A stretch of DNA of 32,000 bases from Nitrosopumilus sp. (GTDB lineage Archaea > Thermoproteota > Nitrososphaeria > Nitrososphaerales > Nitrosopumilaceae), in contig OZ242186.1 in the NCBI GenBank assembly GCA_965205675.1, positions 1,243,533-1,275,532 of the forward strand. Reading direction: 5' to 3'. A model generated the notes under the pieces. The model did not search any database and had not been told where the DNA came from. It saw only the letters and a program-made list of their open reading frames with translations. The stretch's first letter is position 1; every line of letters begins with the position of its first letter. The translations under genes were made by a program, and so were the position numbers. This document shows positions 2,062 through 30,439 of the stretch, one piece after another.

Positions 2062-2090
2062 TTTTTGTAACTGTCTAGAGTTTTGAAGTA
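2062..2090. repeat. IS terminal inverted repeat (left)
   Basis: Exact reverse complement of 3454-3482. It overlaps the transposase stop codon. Confidence 0.9.
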
Positions 2091-3415
2091 AAATCTCCAA
2101 GATATTCTAAAGAATAATCATGAAAGTTTAATCCTCGTAATCTGCATGTCTCCTTTATACTCATCAGTATCTTATGAGAATCAGCACCATGAATGGTTCT
2201 ATGACCGTTTGTAATTTTACGAATTATCACATTTGGTCTGATTGCCCTCTCTGCTGTGTTATTGTGTGAATCAGTTCCAGTAATTAGGAATGTAAAAAGC
2301 ATTTTTCTCTCACGTTTCAATCTTTTTACAAACCTGATACAGTTTTTCTCTGTGTATTTTTTTGATATGATGTGATTAATTCTCCTTTCAAGATTCTTTT
2401 TTGCATGGATTCTTTCTGATTCTGATTTTATTTTTGCCACACCATGAGAGTCATAAATTATTTTCTTGAGATTCTTGGCAAATGGTGCAAATTCTGGTCC
2501 GGGATTCTTGTGATTAATGGTATCATTAACCTCTCTGAGATAATGGATGTGACATTTCTGGCGAGTTGTTCCAACATGGTTCCATGCAGGGTACGAATCA
2601 CTTGTAATGTTGCCATCATATCCCTTGAGAATTCTCTTGGGAACATCCATTGAACGTGATTTGTCAATCTCGTAAATTACAGTCCATTTACTCACAAATG
2701 CCCACAACCAGTGGTTCTGGCCATCTACCCTCCAACTTGTCTCATCACCATGTATGTTTAGATCTTCTTTTAACTCCACAATCATTGTATCATATCTGCT
2801 CCCAAATGCTTTTGATACTATTGATACTGCATGATTAATTGCAGATTCTGTAATGTGCAGTGAGAAGAGCATCTGCAAAAGATGAGATATTTTACCATAC
2901 GATAATCCGATAGTTTTTAGTGATGTGATTAGCACCATGAGCCTAATTCCAAACCTTTCATTTGACAGTACAGTGTGAATGTTACCCGAGATTTGTTTTT
3001 TGCAGTTTGTGCAGTATCGTCTAACTATCGTATATTTTGTCACAACTGCTTTTGCAGGAATGATGTCTTCTACTATTCTGGTGTATGAATCAGTTGGTTC
3101 TGAGAGTGATTTGCCACATGTGTTGCACTCTTTTTGGTCAACTGTAATGGCATCATCAATGTGTGCCCGTCTGCTTCTGCTTTTTCTAGGATGTCTTGAT
3201 GTTTTCTTCTTTTTTGCAGTTTCAGTCTTGTTTGGTTTTGCTTTGATATTTCTTGCAACAAGTGTAGACACTGTTTGTTTTAGTTCTGCAATTTCTCTGT
3301 GTAGTGATTCAATATCTTTGCGTAACTGACGGTTTTCTTGCTCCAGCGAGTGACATCTGTTACGATAATATTCCAGCTCATCATATACTGACAATTGTAT
3401 ATTGTAATTTGTCAC
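2075..3415 (-). CDS. DDE transposase, IS66-family-like
   Basis: 446 aa. N-terminal coiled coil (LEQENRQLRKDIESLHREIAELK), a CxxC..CxxC zinc finger (CNTCGKSL .. CTNCKKQ), then HGDETSWRVDGQNHWLWAF, which resembles the IS66 TnpC DDE core. Confidence 0.7.
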   Translation of the reverse strand: MTNYNIQLSVYDELEYYRNRCHSLEQENRQLRKDIESLHREIAELKQTVSTLVARNIKAKPNKTETAKKKKTSRHPRKSRSRRAHIDDAITVDQKECNTCGKSLSEPTDSYTRIVEDIIPAKAVVTKYTIVRRYCTNCKKQISGNIHTVLSNERFGIRLMVLITSLKTIGLSYGKISHLLQMLFSLHITESAINHAVSIVSKAFGSRYDTMIVELKEDLNIHGDETSWRVDGQNHWLWAFVSKWTVIYEIDKSRSMDVPKRILKGYDGNITSDSYPAWNHVGTTRQKCHIHYLREVNDTINHKNPGPEFAPFAKNLKKIIYDSHGVAKIKSESERIHAKKNLERRINHIISKKYTEKNCIRFVKRLKRERKMLFTFLITGTDSHNNTAERAIRPNVIIRKITNGHRTIHGADSHKILMSIKETCRLRGLNFHDYSLEYLGDFTSKL

Positions 3416-3482: not shown

Positions 3483-3868
3483 ATTCTTTTATTACAATAT
3501 CATCTGTAAACGACTACAGGTTATTGCATAACCCTTGATACTGATCTTGAATAACAAAGCTTGAATAAATCAATTATTTCTATGTTTTTTGTTTAGATAA
3601 GATGTGTTTTAACATCCACCAGCACACAGTGAAGACGTATTAGCTATCCACTGAATTTTATTGTACATTTGTCTAGTTATTTCTCATATCAAAATGTAAA
3701 AGATTGACTTGGCTTAGGAGAAAGAACAATTCTGAAAAACAGTCTGGGTTACCTATATGTTGTACAGTAAAGAAAAGATCTATCAAAGAGCGCGATGAAT
3801 CAAAATATACTAGATATTTTATTCTAAATAATACAATGTATGAGACCAGTTTTGTAATATGTTAGAAA

Positions 3869-4426
3869 ATGAAAACTAGATACAAATTATCACCATTACC
3901 TTTACTGGTAATTTTCTTTCAAATACTCATGGGATTATTTTCTTCAATGATGTTTTGGTTGGTCATAGGAACATATCACAAATACGGATTTCTATGGTTT
4001 CATTTTGGATTGGGAATGATTTGTGTTGTGGGCATTATTACATTATTCATATCTAAAAAAAATATTCGATTGGTCATCATAATCATAATTGCAGTGATAT
4101 GTACAGAAGTTGTTGCAATTATGGGGAGTACTTGGTATGTTGATATTTTAGGCTATGTTTACAATGAAGAATTTAAAAATTATCCTGAAGTTGTTGCATT
4201 TTATGACAGATATGATGATGTAGAAATTTACAGTCCAAACGATGAATACATACGATATGCACATATTTTTACAGATGGTAACGTGATTACATTAAACATT
4301 CGTCATGGTTTAGATTATTCTGAACCTGAAATGATGATTTATTGTGAGGTTGGAGATTATAATGTGACTACAAACATCTTGACTTATTTAAAAAATTATG
4401 ATTGTCTTGAGGATCAATATCCATGA
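3869..4426 (+). CDS. membrane protein, unknown function
   Basis: ATG ORF with three hydrophobic helices in the first ~95 aa, then an acidic/aromatic soluble domain. No family recognised. Confidence 0.5.
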   Translation: MKTRYKLSPLPLLVIFFQILMGLFSSMMFWLVIGTYHKYGFLWFHFGLGMICVVGIITLFISKKNIRLVIIIIIAVICTEVVAIMGSTWYVDILGYVYNEEFKNYPEVVAFYDRYDDVEIYSPNDEYIRYAHIFTDGNVITLNIRHGLDYSEPEMMIYCEVGDYNVTTNILTYLKNYDCLEDQYP

Positions 4427-4826: not shown

Positions 4827-6500
4827 TTGGTAAATTTTAGATACAAAATCATAAAGACTGGTTCAGGCTATCCCAAAAGGTTCGCAGTTATAATTTCTGA
4901 GTTTGTCATCGGAGATACAATATCCTCCGATTCATTATTTCAAAGACATAAAGAGGAATTATTACAAAAACATTCTAAACCATCCAGTGTAAAGTCTGTA
5001 ATTTCACAGGCAATGGTATGGTCCAAAAAGCAGGGCATCATTGAGAGATACGATGAACTGTCCGTCCCAAAATGGTTTGAGGAATTAAAAACTGTTCATT
5101 ATTGGCAAGCACAACTTCGTGGCAGCAGATTCAAAAATCTAACTAGGAAAAATGCCAACAGCACAAAAACACAGTATTTGTATCATTTATGGAACTTTAA
5201 CAAATGGCTATCTGATAAGACCTTTGAGGTAAATATGCTTGTAAGTTCTGCAAACAATACCTTTGTTCAAAATACAGAAAAGAGGCAATTTGAAAACATT
5301 GAAGAATTGTTTTTGATACTAGAGCAACCGTTTGCAGAGAAGAAAAATGTGACTAGAATCGTAAAGCAGTATCTTTTAGATGATATACACAGAAACAAAA
5401 AGGCATCATACGTGATGATTATAAAAAACGCGATCAGGTCATATTTTGATAAAAACGAACAGCCCCTGCAAATCTCGTTTAACCCAAAAACACACTACAG
5501 CACTGAAACAGAATACGAGCAGAGCATGTCAGTTTCAGAACTGATGGAATTTCTCACAACTGGCAAGCCGTCAATACTTGAAAAAACCGTATTTTTGTGC
5601 AAGTTTCATAGGGGTCTTGATGTATCAACTTTGGTTGACAGATTCAATTATGAGGCATGGGAGCAGATGGTACAATGGTTTGGCTCTGAGAATCACAACT
5701 CTTGGGACTTGGAGAAATGTCCAGTGCCAATATCATTGACTAGAATAAAAACAGATTACAAGCATGTGGGATTTTTGGAGCAGGATGCAGTAGAGCAATT
5801 GCAAAAATATCTTGATTTTAGAAAGGCAAAAACTGGAAACGGTATGGAGAACAATCAGCCGTTATTCTTAAACAAGTTTGGCAGACCGATAACTGTTGAA
5901 TGGATATTGAGTAGATTCTCAAGTATTGCTAAACGTGCGGGAATCCAAAAGTCAGTAGAGACAAATGGCAGAAAGCAGTACAAGATGGACTCTCACGAGT
6001 TACGGGATTTGCTAAAATCCACACTGATAGATTCTGGGTGCAGAATTGATGTTGCAGACCACGTCATTGGTCACAAGCCAAAGGATTCCTATGAAAAACA
6101 GGCAAAATTGTACCCTGAGACTTTGCGAAAAGAGTATGCAAAGGCATCTAAACGTCTCAACATGTTTACCAAATTTACCTCAGTGGTAAACGGCACCGAT
6201 GATTCAGACGAATTGCGACTGGAACTCAAAGAAAATATGGCTCAGATGGAGAGTTTAAGAAATGATCTTATAATGGAGAAGGCAGTCAAAGACCGAGACA
6301 GGATGTTTGCAGACAGGCAGAGGGAGATAATGCGAGAAATGCAAAGGGAGATTGACGAGCTAAAGTCAGGTACAGACCACAGAACCCAGGAAAACACAGA
6401 GTTTTGCTGTGCCCAATGCAGTACAATTCACTCCAAAAAGTCTTGTCCTGCGTGCAATTCCAAGCTAAAGAGAATTTACGAGGATAAGGTACAAAATTAG
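4827..6500 (+). CDS. int: tyrosine recombinase / integrase, apparently lacking its native start
   Basis: Catalytic-domain signatures: HRGLDVSTL (Arg I region), HELRDLL (HxxR), HVIGH, and the nucleophile Tyr in KDSYEKQ. The C-terminus adds a coiled coil and a CxxC..CxxC zinc ribbon. The frame is open from 4809 but has only a TTG at 4827; the first in-frame ATG is codon 63. Confidence 0.85.
   Translation: MVNFRYKIIKTGSGYPKRFAVIISEFVIGDTISSDSLFQRHKEELLQKHSKPSSVKSVISQAMVWSKKQGIIERYDELSVPKWFEELKTVHYWQAQLRGSRFKNLTRKNANSTKTQYLYHLWNFNKWLSDKTFEVNMLVSSANNTFVQNTEKRQFENIEELFLILEQPFAEKKNVTRIVKQYLLDDIHRNKKASYVMIIKNAIRSYFDKNEQPLQISFNPKTHYSTETEYEQSMSVSELMEFLTTGKPSILEKTVFLCKFHRGLDVSTLVDRFNYEAWEQMVQWFGSENHNSWDLEKCPVPISLTRIKTDYKHVGFLEQDAVEQLQKYLDFRKAKTGNGMENNQPLFLNKFGRPITVEWILSRFSSIAKRAGIQKSVETNGRKQYKMDSHELRDLLKSTLIDSGCRIDVADHVIGHKPKDSYEKQAKLYPETLRKEYAKASKRLNMFTKFTSVVNGTDDSDELRLELKENMAQMESLRNDLIMEKAVKDRDRMFADRQREIMREMQREIDELKSGTDHRTQENTEFCCAQCSTIHSKKSCPACNSKLKRIYEDKVQN
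4839..4855. repeat. att-like core copy L (AGATACAAAATCATAAA)
   Basis: Matches 12050-12067 apart from a 1-nt difference in the A-run. It lies in codons 5-10 of the integrase ORF. Confidence 0.5.
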
Positions 6501-12042: not shown

Positions 12043-12164
12043 CTGCCAAAGATACAAAAATCATAAACCCGTCTCTGAAATCCTTGTTTGCAGGCAGATA
12101 TGGAAATAATTTATTTGTCAACTAACGACTCTGTCTGTATTTTTTAAATCTCACTGCGATTAAC
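12039..12164 (+). pseudogene. junction ORF: putative integrase 5' fragment (MTAKDTKII) fused to unrelated sequence
   Basis: The first 9 codons read through core copy M in the same phase as the integrase reads through copy L. Joining 12039-12065 to 4854 onward gives MTAKDTKIIKTGSGYPKRF... Confidence 0.35.
12048..12073. repeat. att-like core copy M (AAAGATACAAAAATCATAAACCCGTC)
   Basis: 12052-12073 is 21/22 identical to 18024-18045. Its left part matches copy L. Confidence 0.6.
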
Positions 12165-12569: not shown

Positions 12570-13058
12570 ATGAACAGCTGTATTATGGTTAATCCCAAGC
12601 AGTTATTAGAGCATCTCAAAGCCATCAAGTCAATTATGAGTTCATCTGGAAATTCATTCTCAGCGCAAGAACTGACGGATTCACTTGAAATGATGGATAT
12701 ACTAAGTGACGGGGAATTACTGTATAATCTGGTACAAAGCAAAAAAGATGCTGAAAATAACAAAATAATACCATTTCAGAAAATGCAAAAAGAGGCATAC
12801 TGTAATGATGGAATAATGCCAATGTTTGCAGATCTGACTGATTCACAAAAGATCAAGGTTACAGCAGATGCTGCAAAGTATCTGTATGCTAAAAAAGATC
12901 TAAAAAAGACTTTTGAGATAATGGACATAGTATTGGATGAGAAATACATAAAATCAATATCTAAAGACAAAAATCAAAGCAAATGCGATCGTATCTCGTG
13001 GAGTACAATCAAAGAAGAGATGAAAAATATATCATCACACATACAGCAAGATCTCTGA
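12570..13058 (+). CDS. antitoxin-like protein with internally duplicated module
   Basis: Lies immediately upstream of, and overlapping, a RelE-like toxin gene. It has two copies of an antitoxin-type motif: LEMMDILSDGELLYNLVQSKKDAENNKIIPFQKMQKE and FEIMDIVLDEKYIKSISKDKNQSKCDRISWSTIKEEMK. Confidence 0.55.
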   Translation: MNSCIMVNPKQLLEHLKAIKSIMSSSGNSFSAQELTDSLEMMDILSDGELLYNLVQSKKDAENNKIIPFQKMQKEAYCNDGIMPMFADLTDSQKIKVTADAAKYLYAKKDLKKTFEIMDIVLDEKYIKSISKDKNQSKCDRISWSTIKEEMKNISSHIQQDL

Positions 13059-13321
13059 GAACATACAACAAACTAGTAAAAAAAGACCGTACACTACGCA
13101 ATAAAATTGAGAAAATATTTGAATATCTGCAAGAGAACCCGAAACTGGGAGAAAAACTTGCCGCCAATCTTGTCGGATTCAGAGTATACCACTTTAATTC
13201 AAACAAGTACAGAATAGTTTACAAGATAATTGACGGTTCCAATACAGTCGAGGTCCATGAAATATCGCACAGAAAAAGATCATACTCTGATCTTGCTAAA
13301 TATATTAAAAAAGGAAAATGA
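12983..13321 (+). CDS. relE: RelE/ParE-family toxin
   Basis: ..IEKIFEYLQENPKLGEKLAANLVGFRVYHFNSNKYRIVYKIIDGSNTVEVHEISHRKRSY fits the RelE/ParE consensus (..P..G..L.g....r.r.g.YRiiY.i......v.i..i.hR...Y). The start is uncertain. Confidence 0.75.
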   Translation: MRSYLVEYNQRRDEKYIITHTARSLRTYNKLVKKDRTLRNKIEKIFEYLQENPKLGEKLAANLVGFRVYHFNSNKYRIVYKIIDGSNTVEVHEISHRKRSYSDLAKYIKKGK

Positions 13322-15597: not shown

Positions 15598-15852
15598 GTG
15601 CTAAATATCATGTGTAAAAGATATACTGCAACAATTCCATTTACAAAGAAAACCGCCAAAATCGTGATTGCTGTATTTTTAAAATTTTTGATGATTGCTG
15701 CAATATTAGACAGGATTTTAAATGGTCAGCAAAGTGGCGTTTATCAGGCTTTAGTAATATTTGGAGGTATATCCAACGCAGTTTTTTGGCTATATCAGTT
15801 GGGTGCATGGTACGAAGAAGGAAGATTGCCAAAACTCTCATTTAAAAAATAA
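15598..15852 (+). CDS. small membrane protein
   Basis: 84 aa with a GTG start (ATG 4 codons in) and two hydrophobic helices. Confidence 0.45.
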   Translation: MLNIMCKRYTATIPFTKKTAKIVIAVFLKFLMIAAILDRILNGQQSGVYQALVIFGGISNAVFWLYQLGAWYEEGRLPKLSFKK

Positions 15853-15853
15853 G

Positions 15854-17209
15854 ATGAAGATAGAAATATCAAAAATCAAAGTAGGAAAAAGAATCAGAGA
15901 GGACATGGGAGACATTGCAGGTCTTGCAGCAAGTATCGCAGAGAACGAACTGTTATGTCCGATACTGCTCAGAGAAGACGGCAGCGACACGTACAAAATA
16001 TTGGCAGGTTGTAGAAGGCTTGATGCAGCCAAACTGTCAGGACAGAAAACAATCGAGTCAATAATCAAAAAAGAGAATGCCGACACACAATCAAAAGCTC
16101 CAAGGGGCGTCCCGTATGACGCCATAATTGAGATTGAAGAAAATGATGCAAGGAAGGACTTTACACAAAGTGAAAAGGCAAAGATTGCAGAAATAATGAG
16201 ACCGCATTTCAAAAATCATACAAACCAAGGCAAACGCAGCGATTTGGAACAATTGATTTCCGACGAATCCTCGGCAAAGACCAGGACCGAAAGCGTTGAT
16301 GATAAAATTGGAAAAATCCTAAATGAAAGCGGAGAGACTGTGAGAAAAAGAACAAAGGTGTTTGAGAATATAGATGAGGATACAAAAAAGGCGCTTGATT
16401 CAGGCAAAAAATCACTGCACTCTGCATATCAAAAGACCGTTGCCAGAGAGAACGCAGAAAAACCAACGCCCAAACTGCCTGCAGGAAAATTCAATCATAT
16501 CGTAGAGGACCCTCCGTGGGACTACAAAAACAAGAACATTGGAGGTGCGGGAAAATCAGGTGCGTCATTTCATTACAAAACAGAACCGACAAATATCATT
16601 GCCAAAATTCCAGTGCATTTGATCGCAGCAGATAACGCAGTATTATACATGTGGACCACAAATCAGTATCTCATAACAGGTTCCATGCTGGCAAGTGAGT
16701 ACTATAACATACTAAACCAGCAAAGACTGCATCAATCATGCAAAAAAATTACAAACAAAGACAAGATAAAAAAAATACAAGAGCAGGTGGAGGCAGATAA
16801 CGAGTTACTATCTGATGTTTTAAAAAAACAGAGGGTACAATCTGATGCCATATCCGTAATGCACTGTCACGGATTTGTGCCAAAGTGTATCGTAACATGG
16901 CACAAGGAGGAAAAGAAGGGCTGGGGCGGCTACTGGCTCAACAATACAACTGAGCACCTGCTAATTGGCATTAGAGGCAACGTTCCAGCGTTTGGGTTGC
17001 CTGATGAGACAATAATAAAATCAAGATATGTCCCAAAATCGCACTCTAAAAAGCCCGAAGAAGCATGGCATCTAATCGAAAGGTGTGTCAATGCAACAAG
17101 ATGGAATCACAAAAAACTTGAGATGAACTGTCGTACGCCAAGAGACGGATGGCTCCCTCACGGAGATCAAATCAGCACACAAGACATCAAGAAATGGAGA
17201 ACAAAGTAA
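15854..17209 (+). CDS. ParB-N domain / MT-A70-family N6-adenine DNA methyltransferase fusion
   Basis: Start taken at the ATG at 15854 (MKIEISKIKVGKRIRED). ParB/Srx-like N-domain: ..LAASIAENELLCPILL..YKILAGCRRLDAAKLSG. Catalytic DPPW motif (IVEDPPWDY) and the MT-A70-type C-terminus W..KEEKKGWGGYWLNNTTEHLLIGIRG. Confidence 0.85.
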   Translation: MKIEISKIKVGKRIREDMGDIAGLAASIAENELLCPILLREDGSDTYKILAGCRRLDAAKLSGQKTIESIIKKENADTQSKAPRGVPYDAIIEIEENDARKDFTQSEKAKIAEIMRPHFKNHTNQGKRSDLEQLISDESSAKTRTESVDDKIGKILNESGETVRKRTKVFENIDEDTKKALDSGKKSLHSAYQKTVARENAEKPTPKLPAGKFNHIVEDPPWDYKNKNIGGAGKSGASFHYKTEPTNIIAKIPVHLIAADNAVLYMWTTNQYLITGSMLASEYYNILNQQRLHQSCKKITNKDKIKKIQEQVEADNELLSDVLKKQRVQSDAISVMHCHGFVPKCIVTWHKEEKKGWGGYWLNNTTEHLLIGIRGNVPAFGLPDETIIKSRYVPKSHSKKPEEAWHLIERCVNATRWNHKKLEMNCRTPRDGWLPHGDQISTQDIKKWRTK

Positions 17210-25392: not shown

Positions 25393-25450
25393 TCGCAGAA
25401 AAACCATGGTAAAAAGGCGATCAAAAATAATTGTAAAGTTTTTGCAAGTC

Positions 25451-25997
25451 GTGCCTAAAATCGGCGCCAGCTGGTGCCAAACTGCAAATAGTTTAAGACT
25501 ATATGATCTCAAAACCAACTAATTGTTTGTTTGTTGTTTGTTTGCAAGTAGATATGGAAAAAATTTCAGAGTTATTTTTAGGAACGAAAAACTGTTAATT
25601 TCACTGATTTTTGAGATATCACAACAAACTCTTTGTAGTTTGGCGCCAACTGGTGCCAACTGGTGCCAAACTACAAATAATTAATTAAAAATATGCATTA
25701 TAACGCCAAACTACAAATAATTTTTAGATCTCTAGGCACGAATAATTCTGAAAACAGTATCTATGATACTTCAAACAATAAAACAACAAACAAACAATTT
25801 TAGGCGTGTTGGCGCCAAACTACAATTTGTTGTTTAGTGCCAAACTACAATTTGTTGTTTAGTGCCAAACTACAATTTGTTGTTTAGTGCCAAACTACAA
25901 TTTGTTGTTTAGTGCCAAACTACAATTTGTTGTTTAGTGCCAAACTACAATTTGTTGTTTAGTGCCAAACTACAAATAATTATTAATCGTATCTGAA
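25451..25997. promoter_or_regulatory. iteron-rich origin-like (or centromere-like) region
   Basis: Eleven copies of GCCAAACTACAA (one variant, one inverted). Three 10-bp TGG(C/T)GCCAA(C/A) tandem units at 25641-25670. A 19-bp perfect inverted repeat AATTGTTTGTTTGTTGTTT at 25521-25539 / 25781-25799. AT-rich spacers. Confidence 0.6.
25811..25985. repeat. tandem array, 25-bp unit x 7 (AGTGCCAAACTACAATTTGTTGTTT)
   Basis: Units start at 25811, 25836, 25861, 25886, 25911, 25936 and 25961. The first unit starts GGC and the last diverges after ..ACTACAA. Units 2-6 are identical. Each unit holds an imperfect dyad AAACTACAA/TTGTTGTTT. Confidence 0.95.
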
Positions 25998-26450
25998 ATG
26001 GAAGAAAACAAAGTTAGAATTCATACTCGTATAGATGAGAGTATCAAGGCTCGCTGGGAGTATTTCCTATTGTCACATCATCATGCAATTAAAGGCGGAT
26101 ATGGACCTGAATTAGGCAGAGCCATGGAGATGTACATGAATCAATTTGAAAAAATTCCCGAAAATAATATACCGCAAATGAATATGAACAAGACAACACG
26201 CGATGGGTTGAGATTGATATGTATTGCATTTAGGGCATTGCCGACATATCCATCCGTTGCACCGCTTGTTGTGAGGTCAGTCGTGAAAAACAGTCTGTCC
26301 AAAAAGGACAATAGAAGTTTTAATGGGTATCTAAAACGTGTAGTTGAACATCTTGAGGACCACACATCAGATGATGGAACAAAGACAAAGTCTGTGAAGA
26401 AATTCTGTGAATATGTTGACCGGCTGCTAAATGAAAATTCTTTGAAATAA
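25998..26450 (+). CDS. RHH-like DNA-binding protein (paralog B)
   Basis: The N-terminal VRIHTRIDESIKARWEYFLLSHHHAIKGGYGPELGRAMEMYMNQ matches the pattern of ORF 25081 (R-I-x-T-x-[VI] .. HH-x-[VI]-x-x-G-x-Y-x-x-E-[ML]-x-x-A-M-x-x-Y). Confidence 0.55.
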   Translation: MEENKVRIHTRIDESIKARWEYFLLSHHHAIKGGYGPELGRAMEMYMNQFEKIPENNIPQMNMNKTTRDGLRLICIAFRALPTYPSVAPLVVRSVVKNSLSKKDNRSFNGYLKRVVEHLEDHTSDDGTKTKSVKKFCEYVDRLLNENSLK

Positions 26451-30379: not shown

Positions 30380-30439
30380 CATTCCTTCTCATTCCTTCTC
30401 ATTCCTTCTCATTCCTTCTCATTCCTTCTCATTCCTTCT
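30380..30439. repeat. 10-bp tandem repeat x 6 (CATTCCTTCT)
   Basis: Six perfect contiguous units about 200 bp upstream of the mod start, inside a 49-codon ATG ORF (30371-30520). Confidence 0.95.

Follow-up and report, generated by a model that had tools for sequence, protein, structure and literature searches.

A conserved repeat region beside mcm in an integrated Nitrosopumilus element, a candidate iteron-type origin and operator

The 32,000-nucleotide stretch analysed here (hereafter the window) carries a mobile element integrated in the Nitrosopumilus chromosome, and our subject is the roughly 600 bp of repeat-rich DNA downstream of the element's mcm gene, between two small open reading frames (ORFs), ORF103 and ORF150. 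We tentatively read this region as the iteron-type origin of an MCM replicon that would double as the autoregulated promoter/operator of ORF150, a reading in which our confidence falls a little short of even, while the broader view that it is a dedicated multi-protein docking platform autoregulating ORF150 is well supported. A first-pass annotation of the same DNA had described an iteron-dense origin beside MCM; a conserved cis-acting site tied to mcm was borne out by the comparisons below, and the start of replication at this place is a proposal.

Repeat architecture and its conservation

Searching the 32 kb for the box sequence GCCAAACTACAA with at most one mismatch returned 11 matches, every one inside 25476-25975, compared to a chance expectation of 0.21 and to 0 of 100 shuffles that reached this count. 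Ten of the matches are exact and one is a variant (25476), and the copy at 25633-25644 lies on the minus strand. This confirmed the 11 copies annotated in the gap adjoining mcm, and Tandem Repeats Finder (TRF) and an inverted-repeat search likewise placed the 25-bp array (6.5 units at 100% identity, 25814-25975), the 10-bp units (TGGTGCCAAC, 2.9 copies, 25641-25669) and the 19-nt inverted repeat where they had been described. As in iteron origins, repeats of one sequence are clustered, restricted to one locus and adjoin replication genes, and scanning the window for repeats gave no second cluster comparable to the 25.4-26.0 kb region. The imperfect dyad ascribed to each 25-bp unit is present (8/9 positions complementary) but weak (z = -1.25 for the single-stranded DNA fold), while the central dyad at 25626-25683 is strong, with a 17-bp stem, -16.4 kcal/mol and z = -6.75. 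Similarly, the array ends 12 bp before the next ATG, as annotated, if its A/T-rich tail is counted; the last box itself ends at 25975, 22 nt ahead of the ORF150 ATG (25998).

Related loci were obtained as DNA around ORF150 homologues in Nitrosopumilus metagenome-assembled genomes, which gave eight further distinct elements (L001, L002, L005, L007, L009, L010, L011 and L014; L012 and L013 are identical to L011). All nine elements share the order (NT5C) – MCM – ORF79/103 – ~600-bp repeat region – ORF150. The block from MCM to ORF150 is the sole invariant gene block over the nine, and its order holds in L005 and L010 although their MCM is ~42% identical to that of the window; wherever a locus extends far enough, mcm is found in synteny ahead of the module. 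Comparison with the intergenic regions next to mcm in other elements, which the first-pass annotation had suggested, thus found the region conserved in all eight. The boxes are confined to this region in every element, and the non-coding region can be aligned between elements, where it resolves into blocks A-H (Table 1).

The inverted TG-rich arms are the most conserved feature of the region. They form an inverted repeat of 24 nt at 92% with a perfect 19-nt core (25521-25539 / 25781-25799), and the arm 17-mer TTGTTTGTTTGTTGTTT was found only in the two arms within the window (0.07 expected). Fixed anchors in the two arms are 248 bp apart in seven elements and 238 bp apart in L002, exactly 10 bp or one helical turn less, and spacing conserved modulo 10 bp is a classical mark of DNA looping. 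The arm-bracketed interior (231-233 bp) is 64-81% identical between elements, with zero indels in seven of them and the eighth 10 bp shorter, compared to 67-84% identity for the best-conserved coding part of ORF150 (codons 14-53). Such an ungapped interior argues against neutral spacer DNA and, together with its 10-bp phasing, suggests a phase-dependent nucleoprotein architecture assembled on duplex DNA. Arm-to-arm complementarity is kept in L002 via compensatory changes. RNAalifold found no covarying helices apart from the two inverted repeats, and an Rfam scan of the region gave only sub-threshold matches to plant and animal microRNA hairpins, due to the dyad repeats, which together argue against a structured RNA. 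A coding explanation was also rejected: the interior holds no conserved ORF, the short ORF that follows the left arm, 14-16 aa long in four elements, is missing from L005 and L007 or has its frame shifted there, and ORFs 25523-25684 and 25519-25659 are not conserved.

Across elements the boxes follow a 13-nt consensus, RYRYY-AAAC-TRCA, of the type ..GCC-AAAC in the window and L001, ..GTT/ACT-AAAC in most others and AAACGACA in the array of L002. Within one element all box copies change together, including both halves of the central dyad, and since the direct copies co-vary too, a shared protein reader fits better than hairpin formation. In the other elements block D combines one inverted and one direct box with two boxes truncated to 10 bp, and its dyad symmetry is preserved by compensatory changes. 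Block E always lies 192 bp from the left arm, the columns of block C are invariant or almost so in the element alignments, and the block A dyad is kept in all loci (as TGATCGC-N19-21-GCGATCA at the ORF79/103 stop; single-stranded DNA fold z = -4.5). Array size varies from 2 to 12 units in the relatives (9 in L002, 3 in L005 and 12 in L007), with a 25-bp period in five elements and one of ~34-35 bp in L010 and L014.

The geometry of the last box points to autoregulation. Neighbouring leaderless-looking genes carry a TATA-like octamer that ends ~20-22 nt ahead of the ATG. At ORF150 this distance is 20 nt for the octamer TACAAATA, which joins the 3' half of the last box to its tail, and the variable 5' half of this box occupies the would-be position of the TFB-recognition element (BRE), the last box of the array plus AAATAATT overlapping the expected BRE/TATA position as a whole. 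Given this placement, occupancy of the last box should repress ORF150. The arrangement recurs across elements as block H (last box and ATAATT tail, 16-20 nt ahead of the ORF150 start), and block B is a promoter-like unit ~25 nt upstream of the left TG arm, with an ATAATT-type tail in the other elements as well. Boxes B, D-right and E are each followed by ATAATT or ATATAAT, a spacing which suggests that they may be further promoters. The box as a generic Nitrosopumilus promoter was rejected, the motif being essentially absent elsewhere: box plus TATA gave 10 scattered matches in ~297 kb (both strands), none of them ahead of a long ORF. The literature searched offered no usable thaumarchaeal consensus for promoters or origin recognition boxes (ORBs), and no Nitrosopumilus ORB sequence.

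Table 1 Features of the repeat region and its flanking genes in the window (box, consensus sequence RYRYY-AAAC-TRCA)
Feature	Position	Strand	Description
mcm (692 aa)	22973..25051	+	Element's replicative helicase; Pfam MCM_N, MCM_OB, MCM (1e-80), MCM_lid
ORF103 (79 aa in most relatives)	25081..25392	+	Helical N-terminal part and C-terminal ~49-aa domain common with ORF150
Block A	25385..25428	.	Inverted repeat; dyad TGATCGC-N20-GCGATCA spanning the ORF103 stop codon; two conserved GATC sites
Block B	25463..25497	+	Promoter-like; variant box GCCAAACTGCAA (25476-25487), then A/T-rich TATA-like tail
Left TG-rich arm	25521..25544	+	Inverted repeat; AATTGTTTGTTTGTTGTTTGTTTG
Block C	25574..25585	+	Conserved motif ATTTTTAGG(A/C)A (TTTTTAGGCA across elements) within the arm-bracketed segment
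Block D, central dyad	25626..25683	.	Inverted box 25633-25644 (minus), three 10-bp units 25641-25669, direct box 25665-25676
Block E	25703..25739	+	Box 25705-25716, TATA-like tail, conserved TTAGATCTCTAGGCAC (TTAGATCTCTAGGCA across elements)
Right arm	25776..25799	-	Inverted TG-rich copy, AC-rich on the + strand
Block G/H	25811..25985	+	Tandem array of seven boxes at 25-bp spacing (TRF 25 bp x6.5)
ORF150 (150 aa)	25998..26450	+	N-terminal domain paralogous to the ORF103 C-terminus and C-terminal winged helix; candidate repeat reader

Four GATC sites lie within 340 bp of the region (25391, 25419, 25505 and 25727) at positions largely conserved in related elements, while GATC is depleted across the window (76 observed vs ~160 expected); in an element encoding a ParB_N–MT-A70 methyltransferase this clustering is suggestive only, and it was not used as evidence. 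Two relatives carry remodelled forms of the region. Blocks E, F and G are duplicated in L010 (3701-4150), with a second right arm at 4083 and, between the duplicated copies, a five-unit array of 34-bp period in which each unit is a full box plus ATATAATATTTATTG; this shows that the array part is remodelled quickly relative to the arm-bracketed core. L011 has a 280-bp short form (3735-4015) from which the left arm and block C are missing, as is most of the central dyad, and two of the three source metagenomes of the short form (L011, L012 and L013) come from hydrothermal-vent sites. The related elements L001 and L010 are decaying through insertion of insertion sequences (IS): a DDE transposase replaces mcm except for its last 57 codons in L001 (8042-9173), and in L010 three DDE_Tnp_1 genes truncate mcm and an IS605 OrfB/TnpB lies between ORF150 and the R2K gene described below (318-2259 and 5503-6474). 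The repeat region and both small ORFs are intact in these two elements. Viral contigs of IMG/VR contained no ORF150 relatives and no copy of the array; the single TG-motif match there (L018) was rejected as a chance match in an unrelated phage.

Flanking proteins as candidate readers

ORF103, which starts 30 nt past the mcm stop, and ORF150 had been annotated as paralogous genes for ribbon-helix-helix (RHH)-like proteins. The paralogy held: the C-terminal ~49 residues of ORF79/103 are homologous to the N-terminal ~50 of the ORF150 family (BLASTP E = 3e-5; hhalign 98.4%, E = 9e-15). An RHH match was found in neither Pfam nor the PDB. RHH families in Pfam gave none at E <= 1-10 for 30 full-length and 19 domain sequences, a profile search of PDB sequences with the shared domain returned no RHH chain at E <= 10, and with no RHH profile or solved RHH protein matched we treat this fold as a proposal. 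The shared domain begins with a short polar/hydrophobic segment and continues with two helices joined by a G-rich loop, and its AlphaFold monomer model (coil 1-13, H14-28, H35-51) has a predicted local distance difference test (pLDDT) score of 36-69. This coil–helix–helix arrangement would suit an RHH protomer, but its inter-helix loop (HHxxxGGYGPE) exceeds the usual RHH length.

AlphaFold modelling of ORF150 with 10 close homologues was uninformative (pLDDT 50), and a deeper alignment was used instead. Residues 62-146 were then modelled at pLDDT 77-90 with an H-(S)-H-H-hairpin-H topology (H65-79, E86-87, H89-99, H105-117, E120-123/E129-132, H134-149). The top 50 Foldseek matches in the PDB were mostly winged-helix domains, with every match at E >= 0.06; the winged-helix domain of ORC2 came first, followed by F93 of Sulfolobus turreted icosahedral virus, the Cdt1 C-terminus, Cdc6, MarR/PadR and TubR. 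By topology and structural matches, residues ~62-146 of ORF150 are confidently modelled as a winged helix, and ORF150 is predicted to be a two-module DNA-binding protein. The structure prediction proposed at first pass thus gave a C-terminal winged helix for ORF150 and, for the shared domain, a model in which RHH is allowed but unproven. The ORF150 family comprises 29 clusters at 50% identity among 1.84 billion proteins, is unnamed and has no Pfam domain, and its family-wide conserved part is the winged helix (D.RT...Y motif). ORF103 has no Pfam family either, ORF150 shows no sequence similarity to Rep_3/TrfA, and the two candidate readers match no described family.

Other readers of the box were considered and rejected. 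The MCM C-terminal winged helix, which would follow the model of the Staphylococcus aureus pathogenicity islands (SaPIs), has a putative recognition helix that varies (KRSLRES, QKMIRGN, EKLKSEN) among elements with the same box. Reading of the box as a private BRE by the element's TFB was discarded, as the boxes are absent from other promoters and no TFB is encoded within 9 kb in L007. ParB as a general box reader failed in that three elements with arrays lack it in the stretches examined.

A 183-aa branch of the ORF150 family, ~22% identical, is found in ~4-kb elements of the order Int(400-444 aa) – zinc-finger ORFs – ORF183 – (ORF219/227, in the L015 and L025 groups) – Int(306-310 aa), in which no DNA-binding candidate other than the ORF150 relatives is obvious. 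Boxes and arrays were not found in these elements, nor were MCM or ParB. The TG motif TTGTTGTTTGTTGYTGTTTGCAAA is retained, placed after a TATA-like element and ahead of the Shine-Dalgarno/start codon of ORF183, and has an inverted partner 281 bp downstream within codons 82-88 of ORF183 (QQQTT linker; pairs at 2040/2321 in L015, 9962/10243 in L017 and 2393/2674 in L025). The synonymous CAG/CAA choice in this linker co-varies with GCTG/GTTG in the upstream arm, which indicates a putative DNA or RNA element embedded in the coding region. As these relatives have TG arms without boxes or arrays, it is the arm pair, not the boxes, that travels with the protein family. Tentatively, we assign the TG arms to the family-conserved winged helix as their reader, and the 5' half of the box, which is element-specific, to the variable N-terminal module.

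Weighing an origin against other functions

In the reading that we favour, that of an origin which is also an operator, ORF150 would dimerize via its N-terminal RHH-like domain, ORF79/103 would be a second candidate reader, and the two together would occupy boxes and arms. An occupied last box and array over the BRE/TATA would shut off ORF150, giving autoregulation and titration as with the P1 and F iterons. The arm-bracketed segment, with its strong central dyad between two easier-melting stretches, would be distorted by the complex and passed to the element's MCM, a handover that would replace the missing Orc1/Cdc6, while the variable-length array would tune copy number or maintenance. An origin is suggested by the invariant linkage to mcm, which persists through a change of MCM lineage, by a number and arrangement of sites beyond the needs of one promoter, by the winged-helix fold with weak structural neighbours including ORC2, Cdc6 and Cdt1, by the standing of the ORF150 family as the only obvious DNA-binding candidate in the minimal integrase elements, and by the positional precedent of the SaPIs (PMC9371898). 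It is also suggested by the lack of any other recognised initiator or repeat cluster: in agreement with the first-pass annotation, no Orc1/Cdc6, Rep or primase was recognised among the scanned ORFs of the window, which likewise include no Cdc6/Orc AAA+ protein, and no orc1/cdc6 gene adjoins the repeats. A bolder version, which we consider doubtful, is that ORF150 and ORF79/103 constitute a new Orc1/Cdc6-independent archaeal initiator/MCM loader acting on a bipartite origin (arm-bracketed phased dyad plus array) and present also in the ~4-kb integrase-only elements. Such an initiator class would join an RHH-like dimerisation/DNA-reading module to a winged helix and would recall oriP/EBNA1 or E2/E1.

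Several points weigh against an origin. Initiation, binding and MCM recruitment are predictions, and all that was seen would equally suit a purely transcriptional, loop-forming operator complex. The AT-rich unwinding element proposed at first did not hold up: the AT-rich stretches are only moderately unstable, nothing unusual at 37% GC, the region's least stable windows of 40 bp (-1.08 to -1.15 kcal/mol per bp, conserved in position) fall outside the 15 least stable sites of the window, and its AT-richest 100 bp rank 12 there. Neither GC nor AT skew switches at the region, and genes are co-oriented on both sides. The RHH fold of the shared domain is unproven, and the assignment of readers to sites is weak, as there are only two box types and both follow phylogeny. 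Since the ORF183 elements have neither boxes nor arrays, the protein family needs no iterons, and L011-L013 are a natural variant without left arm and central dyad that is identical in three metagenomes.

A serious alternative explanation, possible if on the whole rather unlikely, is that the region is purely a transcriptional switch, in which the boxes would be operators over BRE/TATA-like units pointing to ORF150, the TG arms would be primary and auxiliary operator looping the 248 bp, and ORF150 and ORF79/103 would autoregulate a lysogeny-like on/off state, with replication beginning elsewhere or needing no dedicated site here. Loops of this kind are familiar from lac O1/O2, gal OE/OI and ara O2/I1. 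The overlap of the last box with the expected ORF150 BRE/TATA, the TATA-like sequences after boxes B, D-right and E and the conservation of arm spacing modulo exactly 10 bp would all follow, as would the position of the left arm ~25 nt downstream of a box/TATA unit, mirrored by the ORF183 TG motif below its TATA-like element, and the inverted ORF183 partner 281 bp off, inside coding sequence and co-varying with the upstream arm. RHH-like and winged-helix proteins are, moreover, typical archaeal regulators, a caveat that Krupovic et al. also made (PMC6563490). However, at least 11 sites, a 2-12-unit array and a four-site phased dyad exceed the usual autoregulation of one gene, and with boxes absent from the element's other promoters the protein would regulate only itself. 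A switch also leaves the replicon without an origin candidate or initiator, and does not account for a block locked to mcm across a change of MCM lineage.

A partition centromere, in which the array and dispersed boxes would be bound by a small RHH-type protein (as in ParR/parC, ParG/parH or omega) or by the element's ParB, which would pair excised copies or segregate them, appears distinctly improbable. Type Ib/II centromeres, known from R1 parC and TP228 parH, are laid out in this way, the array here lying directly upstream of a small putative RHH gene and overlapping its promoter; array copy number varies as in sopC-like centromeres; and a ParB gene (ParB_N and helix-turn-helix) lies 4 kb upstream. 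Against this, the scanned ORFs of the window include no ParA, ParM or TubZ-type NTPase, and ParB is dispensable, which is why we rate a centromere low. Besides the window, only L001 and L009 have a ParB homologue; in the array-bearing L002, L005 and L007 no ParB homologue or ParB_N protein was found among ORFs of at least 100 aa in ~7-10 kb upstream of the module, and tblastn of ParB against 10 kb downstream gave no match, so that the centromere alternative raised by the first-pass annotation is weakened by arrays without ParB in the stretches examined. The gene after ORF150 (R2K ATP-grasp or zinc-ribbon) is neither conserved nor a known motor, the invariant partner is MCM, and a base-pair-exact, arm-bracketed architecture is foreign to centromeres. 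Least probable by far is that the TG arms act by strand pairing or recombination, as an inverton flipped by one of several integrases or as a long-range helix within an RNA whose start lies just upstream of the left arm. The 24-nt inverted repeats do bracket a 231-bp promoter-containing segment, compensatory changes keep the arms complementary in L002 as well as in the 183-aa subfamily, where a synonymous site is involved, and the ~4-kb elements have two tyrosine recombinases. Nevertheless, the segment has the same orientation in all eight independently assembled loci with both arms (loci found via ORF150, which lies outside the segment), and RNA covariation beyond the two inverted repeats is lacking, both of which led us to rate this explanation low. 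An RNA would also leave the co-variation of the direct-repeat boxes unexplained by hairpins and has no Rfam match above noise, and the 10-bp phase-preserving indel points to duplex DNA geometry.

Element context and comparison with known systems

Gene order in the window runs EF-2, IS66 transposase, tyrosine integrase, ParE toxin, ParB_N–MT-A70 methyltransferase, tRNA-Phe, Fic protein, TFB–ParB, NT5C-like nucleotidase, MCM, ORF103, repeat region, ORF150, R2K ATP-grasp protein and small zinc-ribbon proteins. The IS66-family transposase (2075-3415, minus) lies between the host EF-2 gene and the tyrosine integrase (4827-6500), which is unusually long (557 aa). Both ParB-like proteins annotated nearby were confirmed (15761-17209, ParB_N and MT-A70; 20379-21248), the gene of the latter overlapping that of TFB. 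The genes for TFB and R2K are variably present among elements. The R2K-clade ATP-grasp protein (PF14243; 26544-27335), possibly a protein-modifying ligase, is encoded next after ORF150 in the window, L002, L003 and L011, and L005 and L010 also encode it downstream; L001 and L007 lack it.

Further repeats were observed outside the module. A perfect 23-bp direct repeat, ATTTTACAAAACTATGATTGAAA (21840-21862 / 22960-22982), includes the start codons of ORF 21853 and mcm and brackets a 1.1-kb two-gene cassette (21853-22128, 22125-22937) between the NT5C-like gene and mcm; this spot carries other cargo in related elements, e.g. PAPS reductase in L002. A 22-bp direct repeat (21/22 identical) at 12052-12073 / 18024-18045, whose right copy abuts the 3' end of tRNA-Phe (18042-18124, minus), may mark the attachment sites of a nested ~6-kb insertion carrying the ParE toxin (12983-13321), the boundary of which is doubtful because the ParB–methyltransferase gene inside it is syntenic with L001. 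Finally, a perfect 10-bp tandem repeat, CATTCCTTCT (x6, 30380-30439), follows the last long ORF of the co-oriented block and is itself followed by ~1.5 kb without long ORFs; it may be the element end or another protein-binding array.

Many archaeal viruses and plasmids have their own MCM without Orc1/Cdc6, and this locus may bear on how the helicase is targeted and loaded in them. A survey of integrated thaumarchaeal elements reported the TFIIB–ParB pairing and MCM-bearing cryptic elements, and its authors cautiously proposed a winged helix-turn-helix protein as initiator for ~4-kb integrase elements (PMC6563490); neither this survey nor the origin reviews that were consulted describe a replication origin for a thaumarchaeal mobile element. 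If ORF150 and ORF79/103 do form an initiator class, they would be part of the first defined origin and initiator pair of any thaumarchaeal mobile element, while a looped switch, if that alternative is true, would be a clean archaeal case of helical-phase-dependent operator pairing, including an auxiliary operator in coding sequence. As a test system the locus provides 600 bp of DNA whose sub-elements are defined to the base pair, together with its own MCM and two small proteins not yet characterised, and natural variants are on hand (2-12-unit arrays, a 10-bp phase-preserving deletion, a dyad-less form and an MCM lineage swap).

Compared to known systems, the region resembles type Ib/II centromeres in having an array upstream of and over the promoter of a small gene, possibly for an RHH dimer, that would serve as operator and binding platform, and differs from them in the missing partition NTPase, the dispensable ParB, the extra phased dyad and arms and the linkage to mcm. 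With no NTPase and a ParB that does not co-occur with the arrays, we assign it neither to ParABS nor to type Ib/II. Similar to archaeal ORB origins, ~20-24-nt inverted elements bracket a few hundred bp with easier-melting DNA beside a replication gene, and a separate downstream repeat cluster is present, as in oriC2 of Haloarcula hispanica, where such a cluster can act negatively (PMC4010727). Unlike these origins, the element has no orc1/cdc6 among its scanned ORFs, which places the region outside the Orc1/ORB class. Neither the boxes nor the TG arms are known to match the canonical ORB core.

Epstein–Barr virus oriP consists of a family of repeats and a dyad-symmetry element, both bound by EBNA1, which recruits host ORC and MCM. 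By analogy, one dimeric protein would read both a long array and, at a distance of a few hundred bp, a compact dyad of four sites, the array serving maintenance or transcriptional control and the dyad being the place of MCM recruitment; the proteins and the domain of life are unrelated, and the MCM here is encoded by the element. The iteron plasmids (P1 oriR/incA, F ori2/incC, R6K gamma, RK2 oriV), which use winged-helix Rep initiators and are also cited by Krupovic et al., share direct repeats that are spaced about two helical turns and both adjoin and cover the promoter of a gene for a small DNA-binding protein. Also shared are an operator formed by a partial or inverted copy, an extra cluster plausible for titration or handcuffing, and the winged-helix fold of the initiator, here a candidate one. 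The differences are that ORF150 would have one winged helix and an RHH-like domain vs two winged helices in Rep_3/TrfA, that DnaA boxes and 13-mers are absent, that the helicase is an element-encoded MCM, and that the period of 25 bp (or ~35 bp) puts neighbouring sites on different helix faces.

In SaPI origins a winged helix reads 6-12 iterons, which directly follow the helicase gene and are oppositely oriented about a central region, and one SaPI Rep class is MCM-like (PMC9371898). Like the origins of the SaPI and staphylococcal cassette chromosome (SCCmec) type, the region belongs to an integrated mobile element, lies just downstream of a helicase gene and has iterons opposed around a centre. 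It differs in its extra tandem array and conserved flanking arm pair, in boxes of 13 nt vs 5-6 nt and in its archaeal host; the winged helix of the SaPI/SCCmec systems lies within the helicase, whereas the candidate readers here are separate small proteins and the MCM C-terminal winged helix varies without a change of box. Overall, and by analogy, the region would function most like the SaPI and iteron-plasmid origins.

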